From Escherichia coli (lineage in GTDB: Bacteria; Pseudomonadota; Gammaproteobacteria; Enterobacterales; Enterobacteriaceae), in the NCBI RefSeq assembly GCF_003334255.1, contig NZ_QOWU01000094.1: a stretch of 7,711 bases of DNA. One strand, 5' to 3'. How positions within the stretch are numbered: the first letter of the stretch is position 1; every line of letters begins with the position of its first letter. Shown here piece by piece: positions 1 through 483 of the stretch. The notes under the pieces were generated by a model. The model was not told the DNA's origin and made no database searches. It saw only the letters and a program-made list of their open reading frames with translations. The translations under genes were made by a program, and so were the position numbers.

Positions 1-192
1 AGCTGATAGAAACAGAAGCCACTGGAGCACCTCAAAAACACCATCATACACTAAATCAGTAAGTTGGCAGCATCACCACCACGTCAAATAATCAATTATG
101 ACGCAGGTATCGTATTAATTGATCTGCATCAACTTAACGTAAAAACAACTTCAGACAATACAAATCAGCGACACTGAATACGGGGCAACCTC

Positions 193-426
193 ATGTCAAC
201 GAAGAACAGAACCCGCAGAACAACAACCCGCAACATCCGCTTTCCTAACCAAATGATTGAACAAATTAACATCGCTCTTGAGCAAAAAGGGTCCGGGAAT
301 TTCTCAGCCTGGGTCATTGAAGCCTGCCGCCGGAGACTGTGCTCAGAAAAAAGAGTTTCTTCTGAAGCAAACAAAGAAAAGAGTGACATTACTGAATTGC
401 TCAGAAAACAGGTCAGACCAGATTGA
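193..426 (+). CDS. ynfO: Small prophage protein, 77 aa, YnfO-like
   Basis: 77-aa ORF in the track. ATG at 193 with GGGG about 7 nt upstream. Basic N-terminus (RTRRTTTRNIR). The reverse complement around the start matches the lambda right-end sequence as I recall it. Name taken from recalled Qin order ynfO-ydfO-gnsB-ynfN-cspI. Confidence 0.6.
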   Translation: MSTKNRTRRTTTRNIRFPNQMIEQINIALEQKGSGNFSAWVIEACRRRLCSEKRVSSEANKEKSDITELLRKQVRPD

Positions 427-483
427 AGCAATTTAGATAATCGTGCAGACTACGCCCCCTCATATCACATGGAAGGTTTATCT

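Follow-up and report, generated by a model that had tools for sequence, protein, structure and literature searches.

IS1 sequence at the contig edge of a Qin-type prophage right arm in Escherichia coli

The window, by which we mean the whole stretch of 7,711 nucleotides of E. coli DNA analysed here, is base for base the entire contig QOWU01000094.1 of the draft assembly GCA_003334255.1. Positions 78..7711 are the right arm of a Qin-type cryptic lambdoid prophage, and the 77 nt to their left are the end of an IS1 element. We are highly confident that a Qin-type right arm, an IS1 between ynfO and cos, and a contig break inside that IS1 together explain the window. The homology to phage lambda that ends at position 78 would then stop there because of the IS1 insertion and the contig break, and not because cos has diverged. 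An earlier note on this DNA was right about the locus and the direction in which cos lies but wrong about the cause of the break, and its interpretation is therefore only partly supported. The value of the analysis is mainly corrective: a homology break at a contig edge had been taken for a diverged packaging site. The kinds of feature involved are known throughout, namely Qin-lambda homology, a YlcI/YnfO protein encoded beside cos, an IS1 insertion, and a draft assembly that breaks at an insertion sequence. Features are listed in Table 1.

Table 1. Positions of features at the left edge of the window and of packaging-gene segments in relatives
Feature	Position	Strand	Basis
IS1 terminal 77 nt	1..77	-	Identical to annotated IS1 copies
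insA GTG start (IS1 nt 56)	22..20	-	Equals annotated transposase start in ET734
Promoter-like site toward insA	43..70	-	Consensus scan, 9/12 matches
IS1 left inverted repeat, 23 bp, GGTGATGCTGCCAACTTACTGAT	77..55	-	Exact match
Sigma-70 promoter-like site across the junction, toward ynfO	64..92	+	Consensus scan, 10/12 matches
ACCACGTCA, 9 bp beside the IS1 end	78..86	.	Junction from alignment with K-12 Qin and lambda
Lambda right-arm homologue (lambda 48141..48418)	78..355	-	BLASTN and alignment
ynfO, 77 aa, YlcI/YnfO family (DUF3950)	193..426	+	ORF; Pfam PF13132
ydfO, DUF1398	469..894	+	ORF; Pfam PF07166, E 2e-46; RefSeq annotation
Segments of three IS1-free contigs with Nu1, gpA, gpW, and portal genes (locus extract coordinates)	16875..20753; 8477..12355; 7958..9296		

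Lambda right-arm homology and the IS1 end

We searched positions 1..450 by BLASTN against 50,697 phage records. The lambda genome (NC_001416/J02459) matched through its nucleotides 48141..48418, on the minus strand, with 97.8% identity and an E value of 7e-132, and this homology to the lambda right arm is far above chance. Of the shared 278 bp, positions 78..192 are non-coding spacer and the remainder makes up the initial two thirds of the ynfO-like ORF; lambda parts from the window after position 355. The lambdoid phages PhiR42_1, PhiR70_1, Kati, and ev099 matched 78..450 at 98-99.7%. The earlier note had recognised a right-end lambda match in minus orientation, and this part of it held in detail. 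The string it quoted is exactly the reverse complement of 79..200, and this segment lies 85-206 nt from the lambda right end (48502), where the note had said about 85 to 210 nt from cosN. The alignment extends into the ynfO coding region, as had been claimed, and the break that had been placed near 78 appears in the alignment with lambda and K-12 Qin as a sharp end of the homology to both, exactly between 77 and 78. The lambda right end (48141-48502) thus shares with the window both this segment and an unannotated YnfO-like ORF beside cos; it differs in its last 84 bp, which hold cosQ and the cohesive end and in whose place the window has IS1.

Database matches to 78..355 also included lambda-identical 'plasmids' of 3.5-3.6 kb and 48.5 kb from Staphylococcus, Xanthomonas, Synechocystis, Acinetobacter, Paenibacillus, Stenotrophomonas, and Salmonella, as well as the 48.4-kb 'Campylobacter phage CJLB-4'. 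These records look to be lambda DNA that served as a control or spike-in and was then deposited as though the replicons were native.

The leftmost 77 nt showed 0 mismatches to IS1B of ET734 and to IS1A of B-1109. The IS1 inverted repeat was found at the tip of the element and the start of insA just inside its left end, and the annotated insA start of ET734 maps onto window position 22. In E. coli genomes the segment 1..77 occurs at tens of thousands of IS1 places, and 'IS1-like element transposase' is the annotation beneath its matches in thousands of genomes. An origin of 1..77 from p15A/pACYC184 was rejected on these database matches. It is the left, insA-proximal end of the element (IRL) that faces ynfO, so that insA runs leftward off the contig and points away from ynfO. 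The leftward promoter-like site is consistent with IS1's own left-end (insA) promoter and may be that promoter.

Only this one end of IS1 falls in the window; the remaining ~691 nt, up to the right end (given as GGTAATGACTCC… / GGTAATGACTCCAACTTA…), would lie off the contig, and nothing is visible to the left of position 1 because the contig ends inside IS1. The earlier note had expected cos at or just beyond the left edge, a placement that fails, as at least about 691 nt of remaining IS1 intervene.

BLAST carries K-12 matches to window position 71 rather than 78, because the IS1 tip (…CATCACC) resembles the target that it displaced (…CATCAAACC; window 71..83 versus K-12 about 2998..3012, locus extract coordinates). 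This likeness is probably a coincidence.

Cos and its surroundings in IS1-free relatives

From position 78 to 7711, the window differs from Qin of K-12 C600 by 1 mismatch in 7,634 bases and from that of an MG1655 record by 2. Its genes follow the order ynfO, ydfO, gnsB, ynfN, cspI, rzpQ, rrrQ, ydfR, essQ, cspB, cspF, quuQ/ydfT, and ydfU. K-12 Qin has the order nohA - cos - ynfO - ydfO - gnsB - cspI - rzpQ - rrrQ - ydfR - essQ - cspB - cspF - quuQ/ydfT - ydfU, which the window shares from 78 on. The difference lies at the junction, since K-12 Qin has no IS1 here and leads from ynfO straight into lambda-identical cosQ/cosN and then into nohA. To the left of ACCACGTCA, the last 84 lambda bases are unchanged in K-12 Qin, including cosQ (GGGTCCT, 48473-48479) and the cohesive-end sequence; its cosB differs from that of lambda by 5 substitutions and 1 deletion, and its nohA is a Nu1 homologue that matches to about lambda nt 718.

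A single difference from K-12 lies at window position 6326 in quuQ/ydfT (minus strand) and changes codon 118 of the 250-aa protein (G118D). It falls in the first of four CxxCxGxG motifs, which are DnaJ-type and zinc-finger-like, of this Q-family antiterminator (CEHCSDTG versus CEHCSGTG). An exact look-up of the QuuQ protein returned 22 contigs with the G118D allele, from isolates and gut metagenomes. Contigs with this allele and without the IS1 carry lambda-identical cosQ/cosN, and three of them also encode full-length Nu1, gpA, gpW, and portal (segments in Table 1); wild strains therefore hold a fuller 'Qin' than the K-12 remnant. The near-identity to K-12 and a seemingly private allele had suggested a K-12 laboratory derivative; we rejected this, as gut metagenomes are among the sources of the 22 contigs and some of these carry prophages with complete packaging modules. 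The IS1 insertion is polymorphic in a natural lineage of Qin-type prophages.

Because IS1-free relatives keep lambda-identical cosQ/cosN, cos in the IS1-free form of this prophage type is essentially that of lambda and is not diverged. The presence of cos and a Nu1-like gene in the leftward direction, anticipated in the earlier note, is accordingly true of the prophage type, both in K-12 Qin and in the IS1-free contigs. In the window, a scan for the cosN 12-mer GGGCGGCGACCT, which has cosQ (GGGTCCT) about 30 bp upstream, found no match with up to 2 mismatches. Of the suggestion that cos was diverged or disrupted, divergence falls away, since 1..77 are IS1 and the IS1-free cos is lambda-identical, while disruption is possible by separation or deletion only. 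For annotation, this means that the cos status of this prophage is not callable from this contig. IS1-free elements with a lambda-identical cos would in principle be packageable by helper phages of lambda specificity, and IS1 insertion or deletion is one common route to inactivating such prophages.

Elsewhere in the right arm, the Rfam cspA thermoregulator model matches twice (159 and 113 bits; 4760..5152 and 1865..2250, both on the minus strand), over the coding regions of cspB and cspI and their 5' leaders. A 90-aa ORF (2517..2789, minus strand) with a lipobox-like LTSC is nested out of frame in rzpQ (2467..2964, minus strand) and represents the Rz1-type spanin gene (rzoQ) that is expected there.

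Origin of the junction

The insertion point lies between the positions equivalent to lambda 48418 and 48419. The cohesive end is 84 bp away from it, and cosQ, outside which it falls, is 54 bp away. Cos has been defined as roughly 200 bp (PMC4669245), and by this definition the insertion lies outside it. The IS1-free lambda-type sequence at this point reads …CATCAAACCACGTCA… and runs on into cosQ/cosN, with the flank beyond ACCACGTCA toward cosQ/cosN/nohA starting TTGATGGCC…. We propose that an IS1 transposition hit the non-coding stretch that separates ynfO from cos. IS1 normally makes 9-bp target duplications, and a standard transposition would have duplicated ACCACGTCA; the 9 bp beside the IS1 end would be one copy of this duplication if the event was a simple insertion. 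A single flank is visible in the window, the second lying past the contig end. Cos would have been either displaced by 0.8 kb from the late region or lost. If displaced, it would keep its structure, as the IS1 inserted outside cosQ. Apart from shifting or eliminating cos and perhaps providing a -35 element, the insertion would have little effect in a defective prophage whose K-12 form is already devoid of head and tail genes.

As the window is a whole contig, its left edge is a contig end in a multicopy repeat, and the short-read assembly would have broken at the insertion because IS1 is multicopy, leaving the contig to end 77 nt into the element. The length of this overhang suggests a de Bruijn assembler with k=77. 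Two further draft contigs show the same place: CYUC01000066.1 (GCA_001299315.1) has an identical IS1|ACCACGTCA junction and ends after 104 nt of IS1, and DABITS010000093.1 (GCA_013085705.1) terminates 3 nt inside the junction. The right end of the window (about 7635..7711) stops in ydfU, is identical to K-12, and contains no IS sequence; a coverage gap, or a repeat that another prophage shares, is the probable cause of this break.

Among 5,426 complete E. coli genomes, ET734 (NZ_CP100922) is the sole carrier of the junction, at the same nucleotide and in the same orientation (100% over a 100-nt probe). Its IS1 at this place is 768 bp long (8283..9050, locus extract coordinates). Beyond that IS1 comes the cusS 3' flank, and a target duplication is absent; the genome lacks the region from nohD to nfrB, cos and the terminase gene having been deleted. 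The ET734 prophage differs from the window in its location, at the DLP12 locus next to cusS, in its lysis module, and in its flank, which is about 2% diverged, with 7 differences from the window in 78..440, the nearest at 182. Because of these 7 differences, the ET734 insertion may have arisen independently, or it may be old and have been reshuffled through recombination. The exact junction had no match in species-representative genomes, JGI metagenomes, or IMG/VR. The reciprocal junction (K-12 flank, ACCACGTCA, and IS1 right end) had no full-length match in the 5,426 complete E. coli genomes. We found no exact case of a junction in the opposite orientation at the same site, the only nearby IS1 being those of CEA106S and ER2796. 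With one complete genome and a few draft assemblies, the insertion allele is rare, and it is not a new kind of feature. A literature search on IS1 insertion between nohA and ynfO returned nothing relevant.

Other IS1 elements lie near cos in related prophages. In N25, the cosB of an otherwise intact prophage contains an IS1 relative with a 9-bp duplication, AGGTTGTTG (1783..2551, locus extract coordinates). ER2796 and ER3413 have an IS1A inside nohD (1838..2550 in ER2796, locus extract coordinates), and ER2796 keeps both halves of the gene. In CEA106S, an oppositely oriented IS1 lies nearer to cos by 26 bp (2302..2551, locus extract coordinates); it is split by an IS3 and followed by a truncated capsid gene, and the far side is rearranged. 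This recurrence of IS1 around cos and terminase-small-subunit regions is mildly curious, the cases being too few for a hot spot. The same nucleotide and orientation in two prophage contexts, that of the window lineage and that of ET734, and the CEA106S element 26 bp away raise the idea that the ACCACGTCA spacer site is a preferred, orientation-specific IS1 target of lambdoid prophages at which insertions are retained by uncoupling cos and/or by activating ynfO-ydfO. We regard this as improbable; if true, retained insertions would separate cos from the late region and so block packaging of the prophage by helper phages.

What lies beyond the visible IS1 end is a choice between a simple insertion and a deletion or rearrangement, at roughly even odds. 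We give an even chance to a simple insertion, in which the 768-bp IS1 would be followed by a second ACCACGTCA and then by an intact cosQ-cosN-cosB and nohA/Nu1, with cos shifted by about 0.8 kb. Transposition of IS1 has this result by default, and the elements in cosB of N25, with its 9-bp duplication, and in nohD of ER2796 are simple insertions in comparable places. It also agrees with an insertion point outside cosQ and with the intact cos and terminase of close relatives that share the QuuQ allele. The reciprocal junction that it predicts is, however, found in none of the 5,426 complete genomes, including ET734, the only one of them with the right-hand junction. The same absence speaks for an adjacent deletion mediated by IS1, or recombination with another IS1, which would have removed or relocated cos and nohA and left unrelated DNA beyond the element. 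ET734, with its cusS flank, its lack of a duplication, and its missing nohD-to-nfrB region, is an example of such an outcome, and CEA106S, with its split IS1 and truncated capsid gene, points the same way. Yet ET734, which differs at 7 sites and lies at the DLP12 locus, may not represent the strain of the window, and we rate deletion or recombination as a serious contender at somewhat below an even chance.

Two other explanations are far less likely. The left edge could be an assembly chimera in which IS1 k-mers were wrongly joined to the ynfO flank, as might be feared of a short-read contig that ends in a repeat. The identical junction in the independently assembled complete genome of ET734, its recurrence in CYUC01000066.1, and the third contig that breaks within 3 nt of it make this very unlikely. 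The reading of the earlier note, that 1..78 is a diverged or decayed cos, has in its favour the sole point that lambda identity ends at 78. It does not account for the perfect IS1 match, for the lack of a cosN-like 12-mer in the window, or for the lambda-identical cosQ and cosN of IS1-free relatives, and we give it practically no credence. The IS1 insertion with a contig break inside it is thus the explanation that we retain.

ynfO, ydfO, and the promoter-like site at the junction

YnfO matched PF13132 over residues 21-50 (E = 5.1e-21), which places it in the YlcI/YnfO family, and it also belongs to phrog_949 (function unknown); in K-12 it is RefSeq WP_001368374.1. Lambda has an intact 64-aa homologue adjoining cos (48303..48109), the first 49 residues of which are identical and which is missing from the lambda reference annotation. 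The conserved core of the family (RNIRFPNQMIEQINIALEQKGSGNFSAWVIEACRRRL) resembles a strand-helix-helix (ribbon-helix-helix-like) motif. AlphaFold places helices at 19-32 and 37-51 in a model with a pLDDT of only 60.8, and a search of the PDB for a sequence relative of YnfO gave none.

ydfO lies directly downstream of ynfO on the same strand. PHROGs labels its DUF1398 family (phrog_413) 'head protein', as the lambda RefSeq record does for lambdap78 (928..1461, locus extract coordinates), where the label stems from a GeneMark-predicted gene. The position beside the lysis/cos region lends no support to a head function for lambdap78/DUF1398.

The promoter-like site across the junction combines a -35 element from IS1 (TTGGCA, 64..69), 8 nt from the IS1 tip, with a -10 element in phage DNA (AATAAT, 87..92), at a suitable spacing of 17 nt. 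The consensus scan found no promoter-like match in the IS1-free K-12 region. In the first kilobase of the window, it found 2 promoter-like sites against a shuffled expectation of 2.8 and hence no enrichment. IS1 is reported to have an outward -35 element in its inverted repeat that can form hybrid promoters when suitably spaced (PMC8764528), and IS1 upstream of afaA in ST131 has the same layout as the window, with an outward IS1 -35 and a resident -10 (PMC8764528). Unlike the hybrid promoters of that study, the site at 64..92 is known here as a motif match alone. As a small side point, IS1 possibly supplies an outward -35 for ynfO-ydfO and thereby a putative hybrid promoter.
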